A DNA stretch of 64,000 bases, taken from contig DAHXNZ010000002.1 of NCBI GenBank assembly GCA_027365105.1, positions 3,672-67,671 of the forward strand, in the 5' to 3' direction. The notes below the pieces were generated by a model, which saw nothing but the letters and a program-made list of their open reading frames with translations, was not told the origin of the DNA and searched no databases. Each line of letters begins with the position of its first letter. Position 1 is the stretch's first letter. This DNA is from Thermoplasmata archaeon. GTDB taxonomy: Archaea; Thermoplasmatota; Thermoplasmata; Lutacidiplasmatales; UBA184. Below are positions 4,118-46,402 of the stretch, one piece after another. The translations under genes and the position numbers were made by a program.

Positions 4118-4765
4118 TCAATAATGCGGTTGCTTGGGATCGATGCTCTGCAGGGCCACCGCCCCCGGGCCCGTGAGCTCGAGCACCTCGAACGACTCGA
4201 ACTTTCCCAAGAGCCCGCTTCCGAACGGCAGGTTGGCCGTCTTGGCCTGGACGCCCGCGGCCTTGTAGAGGAGCGCGCCCAGGTCGGTCGTGATCGTCTC
4301 CTTCGGCGCGAGGGTCATCGAGATGATGTTGCCGTAGCCGTGGATCGCCACCTTGCCGGGGCCGCTCAGCCGGTCGAGCCAGAAACCGACGATCCGACCG
4401 GGCCGGTGCGTGCCCTTGACGTACTCCATCGAGTAGCCGATCGAGTTGGAGGCGCAGAGCAGCGAGCCCTCCATGATGTCCATCTCCTGGCCGGCGGCAA
4501 TCTCGAGGACCCGGATCTCACCGACCCCGTCCCGGGAGAAGGCGACATGGCCCGGGCCGGTGAACTCGGTCAGGAAGAACGGCATGCCGCCGACCGAGAC
4601 CCGCTCGGCCCCGGCGAGAAGGCCGCCGGATTTCACGGTCTTCCGGCCGACCGTGACCGGCGGCTCCTTGTAGAGCATGATGCCGGCCTCGCCGTAGATC
4701 GACTCTGAGGGGCCCAGGGTCGCCAAGACCGAGGGGACGAGGCCGTCCACGATTTCGAGGTCCAT
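4118..4765 (-). CDS. AIM24/DUF124 family protein (TIGR00266), paralogue 3
   Basis: MDLEIVDGLVPSVLATLGPSESIYGEAGIMLYKEPPVTV...EFTGPGHVAF...LSGPGKVAIHGYGNI; same family as the two genes above. Confidence 0.7.
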   Translation of the reverse strand: MDLEIVDGLVPSVLATLGPSESIYGEAGIMLYKEPPVTVGRKTVKSGGLLAGAERVSVGGMPFFLTEFTGPGHVAFSRDGVGEIRVLEIAAGQEMDIMEGSLLCASNSIGYSMEYVKGTHRPGRIVGFWLDRLSGPGKVAIHGYGNIISMTLAPKETITTDLGALLYKAAGVQAKTANLPFGSGLLGKFESFEVLELTGPGAVALQSIDPKQPHY

Positions 4766-5681
4766 CGCGTTCCTCGAATGTCAGCGGGGCATAAAACGTG
4801 CCGGCGAGAACGCCGGTCCGCCACCCCCCGGCGGGCCGGCTGGACCTCGGAAGTCTCCCCGCGGGCCCCCGTCATCCACCGCCGCGGCGGCCGCTCGACC
4901 TCCTTCCGACCCTTCCGGCGGCCTTCGCACGCCGCGCCCGCTTGCGATCCAGACCCGGCGGCACCCTGCCCGAACCGAAGCGATGGTGATCCTTGGGGGT
5001 GGGCCCCGACAGGTCCCGCGTTCTCCGCCTCGGCGGGTAGACTGGGGGGTGCTCGTGGACGGCCGGCTGGACTCCTCAAGGGGGGTTTCTGAAGGGTCCG
5101 GGAACCCGTACGAGCGGGGGGCCGTCGTTCCAGCGAGGGTCCCCGCCGCCCGATGCCGCATCGTGGGCCGGTTCTCCTTCGCACTCCCAAGGAACCGCTC
5201 GGGATCCTCCTGGACCGGGCTCGAAAGGCCACCCCCTCCCGCCGGGTCGTCCCGCGCGCTCGGATCGTCCTCTCGGCTCACCCGCACTCCGCCCTCGCCG
5301 CTACCCCCCGCAGGCGGGCAGGCCCGGAGAACCCCGGCCGCACATGGCCCGGATTTTTCGGGGAACACGGACGGTGAGGATCCAGCGGCGGTGCATCCAG
5401 AGCTCGGAATCGGCGCCGCGCCCTCGGCGCCGGCGGGACCGACCCGGTGGCGAGCCATTCACCGCCCTCGCCGCAGGGAGCCCTCGTCGCAGCATCGGCG
5501 AGCGGTTCTGCTCGAATCGGCCGATCAGGGCACACGCCCGGGGAACCGGGCGACCGGCCCGGCGCGGTCGCGACGCGGGGGCGAGCCGGCCAAGCGTTGA
5601 AATAGGCTCGGCTCCCTTGGACGGCTCCGGAACCTCGTCGGGGCCCTCGGGCCTCCCCAGTCCCGGGGCGGTGGGAGGATC

Positions 5682-7214
5682 GTGCAGAGCGGCTTGCGGG
5701 ACCATCTGGTCGCGTACTTCGAGGAGCACCGGACGCTCGTCGAAGCCGGGGCGCTCCAGCTCCTCCTCTCGGAGCGGCAGCCGCTCGTCCTCTCCCAGGA
5801 GATCCTCGAACGGCTCGATCCCGGTTCACCCTTCGTGACCCGGGAGCTGGTCGAGTCGGTCCTGGCAGGGCACCGGACGGCCCTCGGGGCGGCCGTCCAG
5901 AGCCCGCCCCAGCGGTCCGACCTGCCCTCCGGTCGGCCGTCCCCGGAGGCCGAGGGGACCGACCTCCCGATCTTCCGTCTGATCCAGGAGGGGTTCTCCG
6001 AGCCGCCGAAGCAGCATGTCCCGCTCCAGGCGTACGGCAACCTCTTCCGCCACCGATTCGCCGCGCTGTCGAGGCTCCTCAAGGGCCGACCCGACCTCCC
6101 GAACCAGCGACCGATCGCCGGACTCCGGTCCTCCCCGGAGGCGACGTCGATCGTCGGGATGGTCCGTACGATCCGGGAGACCCCCCAGAAGCACCACCTC
6201 ATCCTGACCGTCGAGGACGATACCGGGGTGATCGAGCTGTTCGTCCCCAAGGACTCCCCCGGGGCGCTGCTCCCGTTCCTCCCCGACGAGGTCGTCGGGT
6301 TCAAGCTCAAGTTCTCGTCGGACCCGGAACGGATCCCCCGGGTCGAGTCGGTCGAGCGGCCCGACGTGCCGGCCCGACGCGCCGCGCGCCGGTCGCCGAC
6401 CGCGCGGCGGACCCTCTTTCTCTCGGACCTCCACATCGGCTCGAAGACCTTCCTCCGGGACGAGTGGGGACGGCTCGCCGACTTCCTGCGCGGTCAGGGC
6501 CCGGGCGGGGAGCTCGCCGGGACGATCGACCAGGTCGTCGTCGCGGGCGACCTCGTCGACGGGATCGGGATCTACCCCCGCCAGGAGCGGGACCTTGCGA
6601 TCGCCGATGTGGCCGAGCAGTACGAGGAGCTCGGCCGCCGGCTCCGCGAGCTGCCCGAACGGCTGACGATCATCGTCGTGCCGGGCAACCACGACGCGGT
6701 CGGCCCGGCCGAGCCGCAGCCGGCGCTCTCCCCGGCGCTCCAACGCGGGCTTCCGCCCAACGTCCGGGCGCTCGCCAACCCGTCGACCTTCAGCCTCTCG
6801 GGCGTCGTGGTGGAGGCGTACCACGGTCGGAGCCTTGACGACCTGATCCCGGCGATCCCGGGCGCCTCGTACGCCCGGCCGACGGCGGTGATGAAGCGGA
6901 TGCTCCAGATGCGCCATCTCGCGCCGATCTACGGCGGCCGCACCCCGCTTCTCCCGTCGGCCCGGGACGGCCTCGTCGTCGATCCGCTGCCGGATCTGCT
7001 CGTGACCGGCCACGCCCATACCTACGGCGTCGACCAGTACCGGGGCGTGCTGCTCCTGAGCGCCTCGACCTGGCAGGCGGAGACCGAGTACCAGCGGATG
7101 CGCAACATCACCCCCGTCCCGGCCCGCGGAGCGCTGGTCGACCTCTCGACGATGGAGCTCCACACCCTCGACTTCTCGCGGCCGACGACGACCGTCGTCC
7201 GGGGGGCCGGGTGA
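5682..7214 (+). CDS. polB1/dp1: DNA polymerase II (PolD) small subunit DP1, calcineurin-like phosphoesterase
   Basis: 510 aa. OB-fold region (IVGMVRTIRETPQKHHLILTVEDDTGVIELFVPKD) followed by metallophosphoesterase motifs DLHIG, GDLVDG, GNHD, GHAH. Archaea-specific replicative polymerase subunit. Confidence 0.85.
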   Translation: MQSGLRDHLVAYFEEHRTLVEAGALQLLLSERQPLVLSQEILERLDPGSPFVTRELVESVLAGHRTALGAAVQSPPQRSDLPSGRPSPEAEGTDLPIFRLIQEGFSEPPKQHVPLQAYGNLFRHRFAALSRLLKGRPDLPNQRPIAGLRSSPEATSIVGMVRTIRETPQKHHLILTVEDDTGVIELFVPKDSPGALLPFLPDEVVGFKLKFSSDPERIPRVESVERPDVPARRAARRSPTARRTLFLSDLHIGSKTFLRDEWGRLADFLRGQGPGGELAGTIDQVVVAGDLVDGIGIYPRQERDLAIADVAEQYEELGRRLRELPERLTIIVVPGNHDAVGPAEPQPALSPALQRGLPPNVRALANPSTFSLSGVVVEAYHGRSLDDLIPAIPGASYARPTAVMKRMLQMRHLAPIYGGRTPLLPSARDGLVVDPLPDLLVTGHAHTYGVDQYRGVLLLSASTWQAETEYQRMRNITPVPARGALVDLSTMELHTLDFSRPTTTVVRGAG

Positions 7215-39070: not shown

Positions 39071-40102
39071 ATGCAGTCCAGCATGCTGACCGACCGGTTC
39101 GGGCGGGGGGTGACCGAACTCCGCATCAGCGTCACGAACCGGTGCAACTTCGCCTGCGAGTACTGCCACGACGAAGGGCTGGGACCGATCGCCTCCCCGG
39201 CGCGTCCGCACCCCGAGGAGATGCACCCCGAGGAGATTGAGCGGTTGGTCAGCATCGCGGCGGAGTACGGCGTCCGGTCGGTCAAGTTCACCGGTGGCGA
39301 ACCGCTCGTCCGGCCCGACCTCGAGGCGATTGTCGAGCGGACCGCCCGGCACGTCGCCGAGGTGTCGCTCACGACCAACGGGTCGATGCTCGCGGGCCGG
39401 GCCGCCGGGCTGCGGGCCGCCGGCCTCCGGCGGATCAACGTCTCGTTGGATTCCCTTGATCCGGCGGCGTTCCGGAGGATCCGCGGCGGGAGCCTCCCCC
39501 CGGTGCTGCGGGGAATCGACTCCGCCCTCGCCGCCGGCCTCGCCCCGGTGAAGCTCAACAGCGTCGTCTATCGGGCCACCTGGCCCTACCTCCCTTCGCT
39601 GATCGATTTTGTCCAGGCCCGTCCCGGCCTCGCCCTGCAACTGATTCAGTACATGCCCGAGTGGGTGGGCCGGGCCGACCGGGGGATCCCGGCCGCCGAG
39701 ATCCGGGAGTGGCTCTCCGCCCAGGCGACCCGGGTCCGGACCCGGGAGATGCACCATCGGAATGTGTACCGGATCGGGGGGGCAGATGTCGAACTCGTCG
39801 ATCCCGTCAACAACCCCGAGTTCTGTCGCAACTGCCACCGGATCCGGGTGACCCACCGGGGGGAACTCAAGGGCTGCCTGAACCGCAACGACGACCTCGT
39901 CCCCACCCGGGGGCTCACCGAGGGCGGAGTTCGCGCCGCCTTCGAAGAGGTCGTGCGGGAACGGGTGCCGTACTATGGGGTCTACCGCACGGGGACCAAG
40001 CCGCTCCTCCCGGTGAAGACCCTGCTGGAGGGGGCCGATCCCTTCGCCGAGGCGCCCGCCGCCGCGAAGAGACCGACCCTGACGGCCGAGGCCCCGCGCT
40101 GA
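39071..40102 (+). CDS. moaA: GTP 3',8-cyclase MoaA (molybdenum cofactor biosynthesis, radical SAM)
   Basis: ..LRISVTNRCNFACEYCHDEG.. (CxxxCxxC radical-SAM cluster), ..VKFTGGEPLVRPDL.., ..LTTNGSML.., C-terminal second cluster Cys (..EFCRNCHRIRVTHRGELKGCL..). Confidence 0.85.
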   Translation: MQSSMLTDRFGRGVTELRISVTNRCNFACEYCHDEGLGPIASPARPHPEEMHPEEIERLVSIAAEYGVRSVKFTGGEPLVRPDLEAIVERTARHVAEVSLTTNGSMLAGRAAGLRAAGLRRINVSLDSLDPAAFRRIRGGSLPPVLRGIDSALAAGLAPVKLNSVVYRATWPYLPSLIDFVQARPGLALQLIQYMPEWVGRADRGIPAAEIREWLSAQATRVRTREMHHRNVYRIGGADVELVDPVNNPEFCRNCHRIRVTHRGELKGCLNRNDDLVPTRGLTEGGVRAAFEEVVRERVPYYGVYRTGTKPLLPVKTLLEGADPFAEAPAAAKRPTLTAEAPR

Positions 40103-40146: not shown

Positions 40147-40932
40147 TCAGGCGACGAGGTAACCGCCGTCGACCGGGACCAGCGCCCCCGTCATGTACTC
40201 GGAGAGGCGGCTCGCCAAGAAGAGGACGACCCGGGCGATCTCGTCCGGACTCCCCATGCGCCCCATCGGGATGCGGGCGAGGAACCCGGCCATCGCCCGG
40301 GCGGGGACGGCGCCCGGGGCCACGGCCGCCCGGGCGCCGGGCGTGTCGATCCCCCCGGGCGCGATCGCGTTGATCCGGATCCCGAAGGGGGCCAGCTCGA
40401 CCGCGAGGGAGCGGGTCAGCATCACGACGCCGGCCTTGGAGGCGTCGTACGGGGCGAGCTGCCCGGTCGGGCGGATGGCGTCCACCGACGCGATGTTGAC
40501 GATCCGGCCACCGGCGCCGCCCGCCCGCATCTGGCGGGCGACTTCGGTGGTGAGGAAGAAGAGCCCCCGGAGGTTGAGGTTCAGCACGGCATCCCACCGC
40601 TCGGGGGTCGTCTCGAGCGCCGGGGCGGTCGGGAAGATGGCCGCGTTGTTCACCAGGATGTCGATCCGGGGAGCCTCCTCCCGGATCCGGGCCATCGTCT
40701 CGGGCAGGGATTCGACCCGGGTGACATCGAGGGGGAGGAACCTTGCCCGGCCGCCCCCGTGGATGATCTCCTGGGCGAGTCGGCTCCCCGCGGCCGCATT
40801 CACATCGGTCACCACGACCGAGGCGCCGGCCTCGGCCAGGCGTCGGGCGGACGCCGCCCCGATCCCCTGGGCGGCGCCGGTGACGAGAGCGGTCTCTCCG
40901 GAAAGATCGATGAGCTCCGGGATTCGCGTCAC
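40147..40932 (-). CDS. short-chain dehydrogenase/reductase (FabG-like SDR)
   Basis: TALVTGAAQGIGAASARRLAEAGASVVVTD (TGxxxGIG), NNAAI, catalytic YDASKAG, PGGIDTP. GTG start at 40932 chosen; the track ORF extends further upstream through P/G-rich sequence. Confidence 0.8.
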   Translation of the reverse strand: MTRIPELIDLSGETALVTGAAQGIGAASARRLAEAGASVVVTDVNAAAGSRLAQEIIHGGGRARFLPLDVTRVESLPETMARIREEAPRIDILVNNAAIFPTAPALETTPERWDAVLNLNLRGLFFLTTEVARQMRAGGAGGRIVNIASVDAIRPTGQLAPYDASKAGVVMLTRSLAVELAPFGIRINAIAPGGIDTPGARAAVAPGAVPARAMAGFLARIPMGRMGSPDEIARVVLFLASRLSEYMTGALVPVDGGYLVA

Positions 40933-40979
40933 TGGGATTCCCCGGGGCAGGATCGGGCCGCTCTGGGATAGAGGTTCTG

Positions 40980-43088
40980 TCAAACCGCGTTGACGGGATG
41001 CTCTCCGATCCGGTCGCCCGGGCGGGACGGCGCCCGGGGGAGGAGGCGGACCCAGCGCAGCGAGAGGGAGTTGACCAGGACCAGGGTCGAGGAGAGGGCC
41101 ATCGCGGTCGCTCCGAGGATCGGGAGCACCGAGTAGATGCCGAACCCGAACCACGGGACCAGGGCCCCGGCGGCGATCGGCAGCAGGAAGGCGTTGTACC
41201 CGAGGGCCCAGACCAGGTTCTGGCGCACCTTGCGGACGGTGCGGCGGGCGATCCGGACCGCGACCGGGACCTGGGTCCAGTCGGAGCGGAGCAGCACAAT
41301 CTTGCCGGCCTCCTGGGCCACGTCGGTGCCGGCCCCGATTGCGATTCCCACATCCGCGGCGGTCAGGACGGCCGCGTCGTTGATCCCGTCGCCGACGAAC
41401 CCCACCGCCCCGCCGTTCGACTGGAACCTCCGCAGGATCTCCACCTTGCCCGCCGGCGTGACGCCGGCGTAGAGTTCGGCGATCCCCGCCTCGCCCGCGA
41501 TCTCCCGGGCGACCGTCTCGCGGTCGCCGGTGACCATGACGGTGGGGATCCCCAAGGCCCGCAGCTCCGCGATCGCCGCCGCCGCCGAGGGGCGGAGGCG
41601 ATCCTCGAAGCTCAGGAGCGCCCGGGGCCGACCCTCGATGGCCAGGACCGCCTCGCTCCGGGCGCTTCCGGCGGGCGGCCGGTTCGCGGTCGAGAATCGC
41701 TCGACGCCGCCCCGGCCGAGCGTCACCCGGCGACCGCCGGAGTAGCCCTCCACCCCTTCGCCGGGAAGCGCCCGAAACCGTTCGACCGGGGTCGGAACGA
41801 CCCCCTGGCGGAGCGCCTCGGCGACGACCGCCCGGGCGAAGGGGTGCTCGGAGCCCGATTCGAGCCCGGCGGCCAGCGCCAGCAGCGCCCGGGGATCCTC
41901 CCCCTCGATGGCCCGGAACTCGGCGAGCGACGCCCGGCCTTCGGTCAACGTCCCGGTCTTGTCGGTCAGCAGCCGGTCGAGCCGGGCCGCCTGTTCGAGG
42001 GCGTCGTGCCCCTTGAAGAGGATCCCGTCGCGGGCGGCCCGGCCGGTCCCGACGACGATCGCGGCCGGGGTGGCGAGCCCGAAGGCGCAGGGGCAGGCGA
42101 TGATCGTGACGGTCACGAAGATTAGGATCCCGTCGGTGGGGCTCGCCCCGCCGAACAGCGTCCAGCCGAGCGCGGCCACGACCGCCAGACCCAGCACTGT
42201 CGGGACGAAGGCCGCCGCGATCCGGTCCGCGGTCCGCTGGAGCGGCACCTTCGACTGTTCGGCCTCCGAGACGATCCGGCCGATCTGGCCGACAAAGGTG
42301 TCCTCTCCCACGCTCCGCGCCTCGATTTCGAGCTGGCCGTCCCCGTTGATCGCGCCGGAGACCACCGGATCTCCGGGGCGCTTGCCGACCGGGACGCTCT
42401 CGCCCGTAACGATCGACTCGTCGACCGAGGATCCCCCGGCCCGGACCACCCCGTCGACCGGGATCCGCTCCCCCGGCCGCACCCTGAGATGGTCGCCCGG
42501 CTGGATCTCCTCGAGGGCGATCGGCTCTTCCCGACCGTCCCGGATCCTCCGGACCGTCGCCGGCAGGATCGCCCGGAGCCGTTGGAGGGTGTCCGCGGCC
42601 AGGGCCCGGGTGCGCCGTTCCAGGTAATTGCCCACCAGGATCAGCGTCAGGATCGCGGACGAGGCATCGAAATAGGTGGCCGGGGGGAGCCGTCCGGGGA
42701 GCAGGAGGACCGCGGCGCTGTACAGGAAGGCCGACGTGCTGCCGACCGCGATCAGAAGGTCCATGTTGCCGTGCCGGGTTCGGATCGCATCCCAGGCGCC
42801 CTGGTAGAACGGGCGGCCGAGATAGACCTGGACCGCAAGGGCGAGGGCCCCCGCGACCGCCTCGGCCCCGCCGAACCTCAGGAGACTGTACTGGAGGAGG
42901 ACGATCACGACCGTCGCCGGAGCTCCGAAGGCGATCCGACGGACCAGATCCCGCAGGTCGTGGGTCGGATCGGCGAAGGTGGTCCGGCAGGAGGTCGAGC
43001 AGAAGTAGTAGGTCCGGTTGTCCCGGGTCGCGGAGAGATCGTCGGGCGATCCCTCGACGTACATGCCGCAGATGGGATCAGTCGGCAT
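40980..43088 (-). CDS. copA: copper-translocating P1B-type ATPase with N-terminal YHS/TRASH metal-binding domain
   Basis: N-terminus [23 protein letters not shown] (TRASH/YHS). TM CPC motif [13 protein letters not shown]; phosphorylation DKTGTLT; ..[10 protein letters not shown].. Confidence 0.85.
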
Positions 43089-43118
43089 GTCGGCCCGGGT
43101 GGACTGGGGCTCCGCCGG

Positions 43119-43274
43119 CTACACCGGTTGCGGGGTCCGCGGATGGGTCCGTTCGTACTTTTCCTGGCAGCCCCGCTGGCAGAAGTAGACCTCGACCCCA
43201 TCGTACGTGCCGTGCGCGGCCGCCCGAGTCGTTTCGATCATCATCCCGCAGACCGGGTCCTTGACTTTGGTCAT
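43119..43274 (-). CDS. small YHS/TRASH-domain metal-binding protein (51 aa; below ORF-track cutoff)
   Basis: Reverse complement reads ATG..TAG: MTKVKDPVCGMMIETTRAAAHGTYDGVEVYFCQRGCQEKYERTHPRTPQPV. The pattern PVCGM...YFCxxxC is the YHS/TRASH signature. Ends 30 nt upstream of the copA start. Confidence 0.5.
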   Translation of the reverse strand: MTKVKDPVCGMMIETTRAAAHGTYDGVEVYFCQRGCQEKYERTHPRTPQPV

Positions 43275-43315
43275 GGATTCCTCGGTCCGAGTACCCCCCG
43301 GAACTACTTAAGCGT

Positions 43316-43347
43316 GCTAATGCCATGACAAATTGGTAGGCATTAGC
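43316..43347 (+). promoter_or_regulatory. 9-bp inverted repeat GCTAATGCC-N14-GGCATTAGC between the copper-ATPase operon and the CGNR regulator gene
   Basis: Perfect arms 43316-43324 and 43339-43347; the right arm ends 3 nt before the ATG of the CGNR gene; located in the divergent promoter region. Confidence 0.4.
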
Positions 43348-43349
43348 CG

Positions 43350-43871
43350 ATGACGAAGGGATCCCGCGGTTCCGTCTCCGAAGATCGCGTCCGTTCGCTG
43401 CTCGCTTTCCTGAACACCCGGGCCTGCCCGGCCTGCCGGGCCGGCGAGGCCCTCGGGCCGGGTCGCACCGTCGGGCCGGCGGGCGACGACCTCCGTCAAT
43501 TTCGCGACGACCTGGCCGCGCTCCTCGAGGCCCGGATCGACGGGACCCGCCCCGCTCCCGGGCTTGTCCGACGTGCCAACCGTCGCCTTCGCCGGGCGGT
43601 GCGCGTCCCCCAGATTGCATGGACCGGCGGGACGATGGCGCTCCAATCCTGCCCGCTCCGATCGGACGCTCCGCCGGACGAAGGACCGGGCCCCGCCGCC
43701 GACTGGATCCTCCTGGTGGCGTCCCCCCGGCCACCGATCGACCGGTGCGCGGCGCAGGGATGCCGCCACTTCTTCCTCCGCTGGAGGTCCAACCAGCGGT
43801 GGTGTTCCCCGGAGGGGTGCGGCAACCGGGCCCGGGTCGCCCGGCACCACCTCCAACGGCCCCGCCCGTAA
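43350..43871 (+). CDS. ABATE/CGNR zinc-finger domain protein (putative stress-responsive nucleic-acid-binding regulator)
   Basis: C-terminus ..CAAQGCRHFFLRWRSNQRWCSPEGCGNRARVARHH.. matches the zf-CGNR motif (C..C(R/G)..F.D.S.N.S.RWCSM..CGNRAK..RH) preceded by an ABATE-like region. Confidence 0.6.
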   Translation: MTKGSRGSVSEDRVRSLLAFLNTRACPACRAGEALGPGRTVGPAGDDLRQFRDDLAALLEARIDGTRPAPGLVRRANRRLRRAVRVPQIAWTGGTMALQSCPLRSDAPPDEGPGPAADWILLVASPRPPIDRCAAQGCRHFFLRWRSNQRWCSPEGCGNRARVARHHLQRPRP

Positions 43872-43966: not shown

Positions 43967-46402
43967 CTATCCTCTTCGTGGCCCGTCACCCGCCCCAGGA
44001 ACCGGGCCCGGGCTCTCCTCCCGAGGCTCTGAGGCCGGGCCGACGCCGGACCGGGCCCTCCGACTCACGCCGAGAACCGCCGCTCCCGCACCGACCCCGA
44101 GCCCGATGATCCCGATCCCGACCACGATCCCGAGGGAATAGCCGGACATCCCCGCCGAGCCGCCTGTCGGGAGCGGGGAAGGGGGCGGCCCGGCGACCAC
44201 GTCCACCACCACCTCGCGCACGACACTCCCCCCCACCGAGTCGTATATCGTCACGGAGACCGTGTGAACTCCCGACGTCATGAACGCCTGGGTCGTCGTC
44301 GCGCCCAGGGCAATATCCCCGTTCCCAAAGTTCCACAGGTAGCTGTACGGCGCCGTCCCTCCCGCCGCGACAGCCGAGAAGGTCACCCGACTCCCGCTGG
44401 TCGTCCGAGTCGCGCTCGCCGATGCATTGGCCTCGAGCGCCGGGTTCACGAGCAGGCTCAGCGAGGCCTGCGTCCCGGCACCCACACTGTCATTGACCCA
44501 GAGCCGCGGCGAGTAGACACCGGCCCGGGAAAACGTGTGCGCCGGGTTCGGGACGGCACTCGAGTTCCCGTCCCCGAACTCCCAGGCATACGTCAGGGGT
44601 CCCGTCCCGCCGTAGGCGGTGGCGTTCCAGGCCACCCGGAGCCCCACGTCGGTCACGTTCTGGCTCTCGGTGGCCCGGACGATCAGGCCCGGATTGACCC
44701 GCACCGACACATTGGCCGAGATCGTGTCGCCCACCGCGTCCACCGCGGTGAAGACCGCCGGATAGGTGCCGGACCCCATGAACGTCGGGCTCCACGAGGC
44801 GTTGGTGTTCGTCACACCCCCGATCCTCCACATCACGTTCATCGGGGGCGTACCCCCCGTCACCACCCCATCGAGCCGCACCGGAATCCCCACGGTCGTG
44901 GGATTCGGAGTGGCAAAGACGCTCACGGAAGGGGCGGGGTTCACCACCAGGGAGGCGGCCACCGTGGCATACGACCCCAGCGTGTCCGTGAGGTTCACCC
45001 CGAACTCGAACGTCCCCGACTGGTTCAGCCGGCACGTCACCACGGTCGTGTTGCTGAACCTCGGAGGCACCGGGCAGCCCGGAGGCGCCGAGGTGACGTT
45101 GAGGCTATACGGCCGGACTCCCCCCGTGGCCGTGATCGTGAAGTTGACCGTCTGGCCCACATCCCGGACCGGCGAGGACCCGGTCACGTTGACCGTCAAC
45201 GGGTCCCGCAGCAGCCACGTCTGGTTCGCGTTGCCGCGATACGAAAGCTCGTCCAGCAAGACAAAATAGCCGTCGGTCGAGTCGTAGGCCATGGCGGCAT
45301 AGGTCTCCCCCGGCGGGGCCGCTCCCAACATCGACGTGGCGTTCGACCAGGTCCCGTTCGCATACTCCCAGGTCGAGTTGTCCGGGGGCCCCCCCGGACC
45401 AAAGAACGCCGCGTAGCCCGCCGCCGAATCGTACCCGTACGTCGTGGAAAAACTCGCGGGCGGGGAGACCGTCGGCCCCAGCCGACTCCAGTTTCCCCCC
45501 TGAAACTCCCACGTCTCCCCGTTCCACAGGATCGCGCCCCTCATCGAGCCCACGTAGAACAGCACCCCGGGCGTTGACGGCATCCGCCCCACCGGGGTGA
45601 GCATCGTCCAGGTGCCGTTCGTGAACTTCCAGGTCTGCCCGTTCGTTCCGAACAGAAGCAGGTAGCCCGCCGCCGCGTCGAAGGTCATGCTCCCCTGAGG
45701 CGCCTGGACCGTCTTCGTTACGTTCGTCCAGCTCCCGTTCGCAAACTCCCATGTGTCGGTAAAATCGTTGAAGGGACCGTCTCCCCCGTGCAGCACCACC
45801 GCTCGTTCCTCGGGATCATACGCCATCGCCGCGAGGTAGCGCGCCGGGGGAGACACCGCACATCTCGGCGGCGCCGACGTGCCCGAACAGAGTTCGGTCC
45901 ACTGCCCGCCCTTCATCAGCCAGGTGTCGTTCAACGCGACGTTTCCGGCGCTGATTCCGCCGAACAGAAGTGCGCCCCCCTCCGCCGGGTCATCGACCAT
46001 CGTCGCAAAATCCCGGGCCGGGGGATTCGTGCTCCGGTTCCAGAGTACCCAGCCTTGGACCGGAGAGATCCCTAGGTCGTTCGCTCCGGCCGGGAGCGGC
46101 CTCCGCATCGCCGCGGGGGCCGGGCTCTGAGCCGCCAGAGGCGGAGCTCCCGTCCGGTCGGCCGACCCCACCCGCGATCCGCCGGGAACCGGTCGGACCC
46201 CCCCGGCCTCTCCCAACGGGACTCCGCTCACCACCACGGTCAGCGCGACAGCAATGATCATCAGGGCCGGGAAAACGGCGCGGCCGGGAACCCGATCGAG
46301 GAGCCCGACCGCCCCGGAACCCAGCCCGCCCCGGCGCCACAACGCCCGCAACTCGATCCGCTTCACTCTCCCTCGACCCTCCGGCCGGTTCCCTTCGTTC
46401 AT
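43967..46402 (-). CDS. surface protein: N-terminal signal anchor, Kelch-type beta-propeller repeats, PKD domains, C-terminal TM anchor
   Basis: Kelch-like units (..YLAAMAYDPEERAVVLHGGDG.., ..YAAMAYDSTDGYFVLL..). PKD signatures (..YAWEFGDGNSSAVPNPAHTF.., ..YLWNFGNGD..). C-terminal ..GYSLGIVVGIGIIGLGVGAGAAVLGV.. anchor; many N-x-S/T sequons. Confidence 0.7.
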   Translation of the reverse strand: MNEGNRPEGRGRVKRIELRALWRRGGLGSGAVGLLDRVPGRAVFPALMIIAVALTVVVSGVPLGEAGGVRPVPGGSRVGSADRTGAPPLAAQSPAPAAMRRPLPAGANDLGISPVQGWVLWNRSTNPPARDFATMVDDPAEGGALLFGGISAGNVALNDTWLMKGGQWTELCSGTSAPPRCAVSPPARYLAAMAYDPEERAVVLHGGDGPFNDFTDTWEFANGSWTNVTKTVQAPQGSMTFDAAAGYLLLFGTNGQTWKFTNGTWTMLTPVGRMPSTPGVLFYVGSMRGAILWNGETWEFQGGNWSRLGPTVSPPASFSTTYGYDSAAGYAAFFGPGGPPDNSTWEYANGTWSNATSMLGAAPPGETYAAMAYDSTDGYFVLLDELSYRGNANQTWLLRDPLTVNVTGSSPVRDVGQTVNFTITATGGVRPYSLNVTSAPPGCPVPPRFSNTTVVTCRLNQSGTFEFGVNLTDTLGSYATVAASLVVNPAPSVSVFATPNPTTVGIPVRLDGVVTGGTPPMNVMWRIGGVTNTNASWSPTFMGSGTYPAVFTAVDAVGDTISANVSVRVNPGLIVRATESQNVTDVGLRVAWNATAYGGTGPLTYAWEFGDGNSSAVPNPAHTFSRAGVYSPRLWVNDSVGAGTQASLSLLVNPALEANASASATRTTSGSRVTFSAVAAGGTAPYSYLWNFGNGDIALGATTTQAFMTSGVHTVSVTIYDSVGGSVVREVVVDVVAGPPPSPLPTGGSAGMSGYSLGIVVGIGIIGLGVGAGAAVLGVSRRARSGVGPASEPREESPGPVPGAGDGPRRG

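Follow-up and report, generated by a model that had tools for sequence, protein, structure and literature searches.

The established copper regulator of archaea is CopR, which combines an Lrp-type helix-turn-helix (HTH) domain with a TRASH domain and is also found in Ferroplasma, a member of the same class as the organism examined here (PMC7830388). In the cop clusters described for Saccharolobus solfataricus, Pyrococcus furiosus, Thermococcus onnurineus, and Ferroplasma acidarmanus, CopR (also CopT or CopY) is accompanied by a chaperone (CopM, CopT, or CopZ) and the ATPase CopA; CopM is a stand-alone TRASH/YHS chaperone encoded beside copA, so this arrangement is already known in archaea (PMC7830388). 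The ABATE/CGNR zinc-finger proteins are a separate family, whose structurally characterised member Jann_2411 has been proposed to be a dimeric regulator with a ligand-sensing ABATE domain coupled to a DNA-binding finger; the same paper named no ligand, target, or operator (PMC2954205). Here, we describe a locus in a 64,000-nucleotide (nt) stretch of a Thermoplasmata archaeon (assembly GCA_027365105.1, contig DAHXNZ010000002.1; this whole stretch is called the window below, and all coordinates are window positions), in which a copper ATPase gene (copA) and a small YHS gene are separated from a divergent ABATE/CGNR gene by a palindrome. We think it probable, with some reserve, that these elements form a self-contained copper-detoxification module, in which the divergently encoded, dedicated regulator would repress the module as well as its own gene until Cu(I) relieves the repression.

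The listing of open reading frames (ORFs) together with direct reading of the DNA placed four elements at the expected coordinates within 40980-43871, namely copA, the YHS gene of 51 amino acids (aa), the palindrome, and the divergent CGNR gene. The features of the locus, each with its source of evidence, are as follows:

40980-43088, minus strand: copA, P1B-1 Cu(I)-exporting P-type ATPase, 702 aa (Pfam, NCBIfam)
43119-43274, minus strand: stand-alone YHS/TRASH protein, 51 aa, candidate CopM-like copper chaperone (Pfam, orthologues)
43298-43312, unstranded: putative archaeal core promoter element with a TATA-like box and a sequence like the B recognition element (BRE) (direct reading, inference)
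43316-43347, unstranded: candidate operator, inverted repeat GCTAATGCC-N14-GGCATTAGC (conservation)
43350-43871, plus strand: ABATE plus CGNR treble-clef zinc-finger protein, 173 aa, candidate Cu(I)-responsive regulator (Pfam, synteny)
43425-43436, plus strand: codons of Cys26-Pro-Ala-Cys29, the CxxC motif in the first beta-hairpin region of the ABATE domain (subfamily conservation)
43746-43850, plus strand: CGNR treble-clef zinc finger (conserved cysteines and recognition helix)
43767-43769, plus strand: codon of His140 (subfamily conservation)

The YHS ORF and copA share a strand, with the former 30 nt upstream, and are probably co-transcribed. The intergenic region between the YHS and CGNR genes measures 75 nt. 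Because the G+C content of the locus is 62-77%, equal to that of its flanks, the AT-rich half-sites of the palindrome stand out from their surroundings.

The linkage between the CGNR gene and copA was found to extend well beyond this organism. The closest relatives of the regulator come from Thermoplasmata metagenome-assembled genomes (MAGs) and mine-drainage metagenomes (59-77% identity), followed by a second tier at 33-37% identity. Every related metagenome contig with enough sequence, including those of the 35%-identity relatives, shows the same order, with a YHS gene (46-53 aa) and then copA running away from the divergent CGNR gene. A scan of one genome per prokaryotic species gave 28 loci with relatives of the full-length type (27 in MAGs with the label Thermoplasmata, and L014 in one labelled only "bacterium"), together with 18 loci that match in the zinc finger only and are bacterial or thaumarchaeal. 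As determined by tblastn, YHS and copA lie divergently upstream in 23 of the 25 full-length-type loci whose upstream DNA is available, at regulator identities as low as about 30%, and neither gene lies beside the CGNR gene in any of the 18 non-Thermoplasmata loci. A CGNR gene apart from copA in the relatives and a poorly conserved small ORF had been named beforehand as the outcomes that would speak against a copper circuit; what was found is co-localisation in nearly all of these genomes and in all the metagenome contigs examined, as well as strong conservation of the ORF.

Both domains of the regulator were recovered by Pfam above their cut-offs: zf-CGNR scored 39.2 bits (gathering cut-off 24; residues 131-167) and ABATE 31.9 bits (cut-off 24.4), the latter match covering residues 33-99 alone. 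No HTH family appeared among the Pfam and NCBIfam matches, and Pfam gave neither a TRASH/YHS match nor a match to the CsoR/RcnR four-helix bundle (DUF156). The sequence-only reading, which had called the divergent gene product an ABATE/CGNR protein distinct from the CopR-type Lrp/TRASH regulators, is thus borne out, and the lack of HTH and TRASH domains points to a non-orthologous replacement of the canonical archaeal CopR. The zinc ligands of the finger are Cys133, Cys138, Cys152, and Cys157, and its recognition helix reads CGNRARVARHH. These four cysteines and the literal Cys157-Gly-Asn-Arg160 motif are invariant, which is the four-cysteine/CGNR signature of the family, and the cysteines align to Cys147/152/168/172 of Jann_2411 (PDB 3H0N; PMC2954205). 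A profile search against the PDB returned 3H0N as its sole match (E 1e-4), as did a structural search with a moderate AlphaFold2 model (pLDDT 72.9; Foldseek probability 0.97, TM 0.41). In a profile search of 1.84 billion representative proteins, the family (Pfam PF07336 and PF11706; DUF1470) comprised 8150 representatives at E<=1e-3; the window's own regulator had no exact match in the protein collection.

Within this large family, the copA-linked members carry a set of residues of their own. Cys26, Cys29, and His140 are present in 57 of 57 members of the copA-linked subfamily versus 0 of 87 generic members, and Arg30, Arg145, and Gln149 are likewise group-specific; the four zinc-binding cysteines and Gly158, Asn159, Arg160, Arg162, Arg165, and His166 are kept in both groups. 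Position 140, two residues past the zinc ligand Cys138, is never His in the generic members, where Leu is commonest. Among the representative proteins, the top approximately 55 (to P0055) carry the motif N-T-x-x-C-x-x-C-(R) and the next approximately 100 are without it, the single exception in the top group being P0016, whose N-terminus is apparently missing. One N-terminal CxxC was found in every full-length Thermoplasmata homologue and in 0 of 18 bacterial homologues, and the nearest generic relative lies in a bacterial context of LysR, MerR, and major facilitator superfamily genes, without copA. The subfamily is diverse (about 55 clusters at 50% identity); its taxonomy is Thermoplasmata wherever a genome record is labelled, except for L014, and most members are unlabelled metagenome proteins. 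The possibility of horizontal acquisition of the CGNR gene, raised when the DNA was first read, found no support, given a G+C content equal to that of the flanks and a copA-linked clade that is old and diverse. A recent acquisition likewise gained no support, judged by the same G+C content and by the Thermoplasmata label of all species-genome members but L014. The window clade is also without an ABATE segment of about 16 residues (residues ~36-45 versus alignment columns 81-97) that is present in other family members and holds a conserved Trp in 82% of the subfamily and 97% of the generic members, giving a trimmed sensor domain.

A Cys2His set is a typical Cu(I) site, for which CsoR provides a precedent. 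Cys26 and Cys29 are the Cu(I) ligands that we propose; His140 is a possible third one, through which the sensor would be coupled to the finger that binds DNA. We consider it reasonably probable that Cu(I) is the signal and that it is sensed via CxxC with or without His140. CxxC motifs are common as redox switches too, and the protein might bind its operator while its CxxC serves as a thiol redox switch or as a sensor of another thiophilic ion, in which case the response would be to oxidative or general metal stress. In keeping with this alternative, the ABATE family was suggested to be "stress-induced" (PMC2954205), merA on a Rhodococcus plasmid has a generic ABATE gene as its neighbour, and an orphan CxxC-type gene lies beside an ABC-3 permease of the Zn/Mn type. 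However, members of the CxxC subfamily occur almost exclusively alongside a P1B-1 ATPase for Cu(I)/Ag(I) and a YHS chaperone (23 of 25 genomes and all metagenome contigs). Furthermore, the invariant His140 completes the Cys2His set that is typical of Cu(I) sensors such as CsoR, and we regard a redox or general metal response as quite unlikely.

Copper might also act on the finger itself, by displacing the structural Zn(II) of the Cys4 site as CopZ-delivered Cu(I) does in Enterococcus hirae CopY, with the YHS protein as the donor and CxxC in a structural or accessory role. The CopZ-to-CopY transfer is an established precedent, the DNA-binding domain here is indeed a Cys4 zinc site, and a small copper chaperone gene is always co-encoded. 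However, the generic CGNR proteins share this finger and none of them is linked to copper genes, and the subfamily-invariant Cys26, Cys29, and His140 favour a dedicated site, which leaves zinc displacement as a highly improbable mechanism.

The DNA element to which the regulator would bind was also examined. The inverted repeat has arms at 43316-43324 and 43339-43347, which are complementary at 9 of 9 positions and separated by a 14-nt spacer, and its core reads TAATG (43318-43322)-N18-CATTA (43341-43345). No other copy exists in the 64-kb window, even with up to 3 mismatches, and shuffles predict 0.01 matches. The repeat ends at 43347 and the regulator ATG starts at 43350, which leaves two nt between them; the sequence-only reading had put the palindrome in this shared promoter region 3 nt before the ATG, and the difference is one of counting convention. 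No second operator was found in the window, even at 2 mismatches or with the degenerate motif, and the idea of a wider regulon within these 64 kb was dropped on that account.

The intergenic regions from 29 distinct loci were then compared. The TAATG/CATTA core, exact or with one mismatch, is present in 28 of them, at N18 in 27 and at N19 in one (L020). Its arms hold 1.6-2 bits per position and the 14-nt centre about 0 bits, and the flanking C and G as well as the inner c/C positions are partly conserved. A degenerate form, TAAY-N20-RTTA, gave 36 matches in the window and 40 Thermoplasmata loci (380 kb), all of them in YHS-CGNR intergenic regions and 0 elsewhere. A hairpin in RNA or DNA was ruled out as the reason for the repeat: the arm sequence is conserved beyond complementarity, the inner arm positions are mostly non-complementary, no compensatory changes occur, and the spacer is unconserved. 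The earlier suggestion of a distinct copper-responsive circuit thus stands as regards regulator type and operator, the sequence and spacing of the palindrome being conserved clade-wide, with the copper response itself as the predicted part.

Similar palindromes were found at CGNR genes that are not linked to copper genes. Upstream of CGNR genes from Kribbella, Pseudonocardia, Ktedonobacteria, Alloacidobacterium, and a thaumarchaeon, whose neighbouring genes are unrelated, TAAY-N20-RTTA occurs at 11 sites in 4.9 kb versus 0 in 167 kb of background. The Kribbella and Pseudonocardia sites read CCTAAY-N20-GTTAGG, those of two Ktedonobacteria and Alloacidobacterium TGTAAC-N20-GTTACA, and the thaumarchaeon has two sites upstream of its CGNR gene. 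Two alphaproteobacteria have an N10 version with the half-site CTAATGCC; one of these sites is CTAGCACTCCTAATGCC-CACA-GGCATTAGGAGTGCTAG, with a half-site identical to that of the window. Because the motif had been relaxed to TAAY/RTTA after the bacterial data were seen, an independent set was built from PLSDB records. In this plasmid and chromid set, N20/N21 sites lie directly upstream of the CGNR gene in 5 of 8 loci (Nonomuraea, Rhodococcus, two Ralstonia, and Pantoea; 1-3 sites each), amounting to 10 sites in 2.7 kb versus 1 in 49.6 kb. Overall, across several bacterial phyla and the thaumarchaeon, the 7.6 kb preceding CGNR genes contain about 25 TAAY-N20/21-RTTA sites, versus 2 in 217 kb.

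The recognition helix CGNRxRVARH is conserved family-wide, which fits a shared half-site, and the CGNR gene is the only element common to all these loci, for which reason the palindrome is best read as the autoregulatory operator of the CGNR protein. We therefore take it to be, most likely, the protein's own operator, and binding of the window's palindrome by the CGNR protein is the step of the model in which we have high confidence. A palindromic operator that accompanies the family genes across phyla would suit an ABATE-CGNR homodimer as the DNA-binding form. Some sources name the homologues "predicted RNA-binding Zn ribbon-like protein", and one could imagine that another regulator encoded elsewhere, for instance of the CopR type, binds the palindrome next to a CGNR protein with a different role such as RNA binding. 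However, the operator architecture follows CGNR genes into unrelated bacteria with wholly different neighbours, it abuts or overlaps the CGNR start codon, and the hairpin variant of this explanation fails on the conservation described above; an outside regulator is accordingly the least credible explanation and very improbable. As to the family at large, we see an about even chance that the ABATE-CGNR proteins are widespread autoregulated palindrome-binding factors with a shared operator TAAY-N20/21-RTTA (N10 in some), among which a Thermoplasmata-labelled subfamily would have gained Cys-x2-Cys and His as a new structural class of Cu(I) metalloregulator, replacing CopR at the cop locus.

Two features of the bacterial sites were also noted. 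Generic ABATE/CGNR genes without CxxC are repeatedly divergent from an alpha/beta-hydrolase gene (L060 4070-5588, L062 1889-3540, and L067 1900-3531), with TAAY-N20/21-RTTA sites between the two genes; one such CGNR/hydrolase pair is that adjoining merA on the Rhodococcus plasmid. The bacterial members would thus seem to have a different target, one that recurs among them. In L045, L046, L057, L061, L062, and L067, a conserved GTCAA comes after the left half-site, in the form TAAYnnGTCAA (e.g., CCTAATGGGTCAA and TGTAACTTGTCAA), which makes the bacterial sites asymmetric; the window has ATGACAAA at the equivalent place (43325-43333).

The position of the operator relative to the promoter bears on how the regulator would act. 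In the window, a TATA-like box, TACTTAAG (43305-43312), is preceded by a BRE-like conserved GGAAC (43300-43304) within CCGGAAC. The centre of the box is 34.5 nt away from the YHS ATG and 41.5 nt away from that of the CGNR gene, and the operator begins 4 nt past the box. Since TACTTAAG is the sole A/T-rich candidate between the two start codons, it is probably common to both divergent units. The motif GGAACTAC(T/A)TAA is kept in the relatives L001, L002, L011, L022, and L058, which share the layout of the window, called type B here. This layout is found in 8 distinct sequences including the window; the TATA-like box is located at about 30 nt from the YHS ATG, with the operator 4-5 nt further on and ending 2-5 nt before the regulator ATG. 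In the type A layout (21 distinct sequences), the near end of the operator is 2 nt from the YHS start codon, and 2-3 nt past the far arm comes a TATA box of the TTATTTA type, so that the operator occupies the gap between the TATA box and the YHS start. Both types have one A/T-rich box between the genes, about 35-42 nt from each start codon. In L058, one operator arm contains the regulator ATG at a distance of 29 nt from the TATA centre, an arrangement that implies that the gene is leaderless and autoregulated. The type-B loci group together in a rough neighbour-joining tree, indicating that the operator switched its side of the TATA box in one or few lineages.

Two of the loci deserve separate mention. 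L014 (DAIDCO010000046.1) has a complete type-A module with the same operator despite its "bacterium" label, and is probably an unclassified or mislabelled archaeal bin. In L001 (GCA_054610955), the Thermoplasmata MAG that is the closest relative, a 412-aa TnpB/Cas12f1-like_TNB ORF with its flanks (4629-6001) has inserted itself precisely between operator and CGNR coding sequence, with the junction directly after ...GGCATTAGTTCAT. The regulator gene has thereby lost its promoter and operator and acquired a new N-terminus, whereas the operator stays with YHS-copA; the insertion may be a natural knock-down or rewiring of the regulator.

Taken together, these data suggest the following scheme. The YHS-copA operon would supply a small TRASH/YHS copper chaperone and a Cu(I)-exporting P1B-1 ATPase, and a dimeric ABATE-CGNR regulator would bind CTAATG-N18-CATTAG, which abuts a single TATA-like box. 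Without copper, the bound dimer would occlude the promoter. In the window lineage, the operator spans from the TATA box to the regulator start codon, which would give autorepression; the BRE side of the promoter for YHS-copA would be covered as well. Most other lineages have the operator across the TATA box, in the interval up to the YHS start codon. When copper is present, Cu(I) would bind to Cys26-x2-Cys29, probably together with His140 beside the zinc knuckle, whereupon the affinity for DNA would drop and YHS-copA would be derepressed. An operator between the TATA box and the start codon, as in the 21 distinct type-A loci, is in the classic archaeal repression position, and we lean, by a modest degree of belief, towards the CGNR protein acting as a repressor.

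The main rival to repression is a CopR-like activator role in the window lineage, in which the copper-bound CGNR protein would activate YHS-copA and repress its own gene, as P. furiosus CopR does in vitro. In the window and the 7 other distinct type-B sequences, the operator lies upstream of the TATA box for YHS-copA and downstream of it for the regulator gene, so that it directly adjoins the TATA box of YHS-copA on its BRE side, where archaeal activators work. P. furiosus CopR does activate copA and repress copR from a site between divergent promoters (PMC7830388), and with one CxxC per protomer, a dimer bridged by the metal is conceivable, which would bind DNA only in the metallated state. 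However, 21 of the 29 distinct relatives have the repression geometry, with the operator between the TATA box and the YHS start and with protein and operator otherwise the same; moreover, an operator 4-5 nt from the TATA box overlaps the contact of transcription factor B at the BRE. We thus hold activation to be unlikely, and repression relieved by Cu(I) to be the better account.

Several points weigh against this account of a copper-relieved repressor. With the window operator on the regulator side of the TATA box, direct repression of copA is less self-evident and an activator role becomes possible. The promoter assignments, the transcription starts, and the use of one TATA box in both directions are predictions from the DNA. 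Two Thermoplasmata genomes, L024 and L038, carry a CxxC-type CGNR gene without adjacent copA or YHS and without a clear N20 operator. The relaxation of the motif to TAAY/RTTA was made post hoc, and the confirmation set, which is independent, is small. The structural model is only moderate (by its pLDDT of 72.9 and its TM of 0.41 to 3H0N). Full-text literature searches on the family returned only the 2009 structure paper of 3H0N and passing mentions, and turned up no function, ligand, or DNA target for it. As for a CopR-type regulator, a TRASH-like regular expression run over the 64-kb window found only the small ORF and the CopA N-terminus. The neighbours of the two orphan genes were recorded as well: L024 4941-5525 (CPEC) lies among exosome RNase PH subunits and the ABC-3 permease (Zn/Mn-type), and L038 at about 4989-5540 (CPGC) lies beside a GH15 enzyme and ATP sulfurylase.

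The two genes of the presumed target operon were characterised in turn. CopA matches Pfam E1-E2_ATPase (1e-55) and Hydrolase (2e-26), and scores 526 bits against a cut-off of 397 for NCBIfam TIGR01511 (ATPase-IB1_Cu), which places it among the P1B-1 ATPases; its translation shows the CPC, YN-x4-P, and M-x2-SS (as MALSS) motifs. As had been claimed from the letters alone, it begins with a YHS/TRASH domain, a YHS match at residues 3-41 (E 6.5e-5, under the Pfam cut-off) that replaces the HMA domain. In more than 30 related loci, copA is syntenic and 51-90% identical. The small ORF, also part of that claim, is indeed present upstream of copA at 43119-43274. It scores 29.0 bits for Pfam YHS, just under the cut-off of 30.3, and its conservation across 29 distinct orthologous sequences (46-57 aa) indicates that it is a real gene. 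Invariant in these 29 are M1, D6, P7, C9, M11, G22, Y24, F31, C32, C36, and Y40, giving the pattern D-P-x-C-x-M ... G-x-Y ... F-C-x3-C-x3-Y. By tblastn, it was detected at 43-92% identity in every copA-linked locus, always directly upstream of copA. The small protein has what characterises a CopM-type chaperone, namely one TRASH/YHS domain, the cysteine pattern, and a gene beside copA, and it is a candidate copper chaperone that may be the functional counterpart of CopM. The novelty of the locus is the regulator with its operator, not the stand-alone chaperone.

The surroundings of the module were inspected too. A MoaA-like radical-SAM gene (39071-40102, plus strand) flanks copA alike across the window clade (L001 358-2216; L058 1634-2638), and a short-chain dehydrogenase/reductase (SDR) gene flanks copA in both the window and L001. 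The 335-aa SDR ORF at 40147-41154 runs into the copA 3' end only on account of a start placed too far upstream; its L001 orthologue has 261 aa. On the other side, 43967-46402 (minus strand) encodes a protein of 811 aa with Kelch/PKD repeats and a hydrophobic segment at its C-terminus. The gene of this probable surface protein is convergent to the regulator gene and is not kept beside the module in relatives.

Metal-sensing transcription factors belong to few structural families, and one more would matter for the understanding of metal homeostasis. The kind of system described here, a metal-sensing regulator over an efflux ATPase, is known; the sensor class and the operator are new. If the model is true, it would supply the first function, ligand, and operator for a family whose structure dates from 2009 and to which no function has been assigned since, and the family-wide operator consensus would allow regulon prediction in Actinomycetota, Pseudomonadota, and other phyla. 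It would also mean that a large uncultured group of Thermoplasmata from acid mine drainage, peat, and soil governs copper export by a regulator other than CopR, and that one operator appears to have changed sides of a shared TATA box during evolution.

Compared with the archaeal cop clusters, the locus is alike in having a copper P-type ATPase, a small TRASH-type chaperone (optional in those clusters), and a dedicated divergent regulator, whose site lies between divergent promoters and which is likely autoregulated. Unlike CopR, the regulator is built from ABATE and CGNR domains, has neither HTH nor TRASH, and would sense through CxxC and His; and whereas CopR has multiple weakly conserved sites that are wrapped by an octamer, the site here is a discrete palindrome of 2 x 6-9 bp with a fixed N18 core spacing. 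With Jann_2411, the only structurally characterised ABATE/CGNR protein, the regulator shares the two-domain architecture, the four zinc cysteines, and the CGNR helix; in contrast, the two are only about 19% identical, and Jann_2411 has neither the N-terminal CxxC nor a His after the second zinc ligand.

Among the bacterial Cu(I) sensors, CsoR uses a trigonal Cys-His-Cys site, CopY/CopZ relies on displacement of Zn by Cu, and CueR binds the metal with two Cys. The proposed logic is analogous to theirs in that a thiolate-rich Cu(I) site would govern the DNA binding of a copA repressor or activator, for which Cys2His is plausible, and the co-encoded small chaperone recalls CopY/CopZ. Their folds, however, are unrelated to that of the CGNR protein and share no sequence similarity with it, so that the likeness lies in the possible working only. 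The operators of MDR1 of Archaeoglobus fulgidus and of LrpA and Phr of Pyrococcus lie just downstream of the TATA box and block the recruitment of RNA polymerase. The operator described here similarly adjoins the TATA box and spans a predicted transcription start, that of YHS-copA in 21 relatives and that of the regulator gene in the window. Unlike those systems, the regulator belongs to a different protein family, one operator and one TATA box apparently serve two divergent units, and the operator has swapped sides of the TATA box between lineages.

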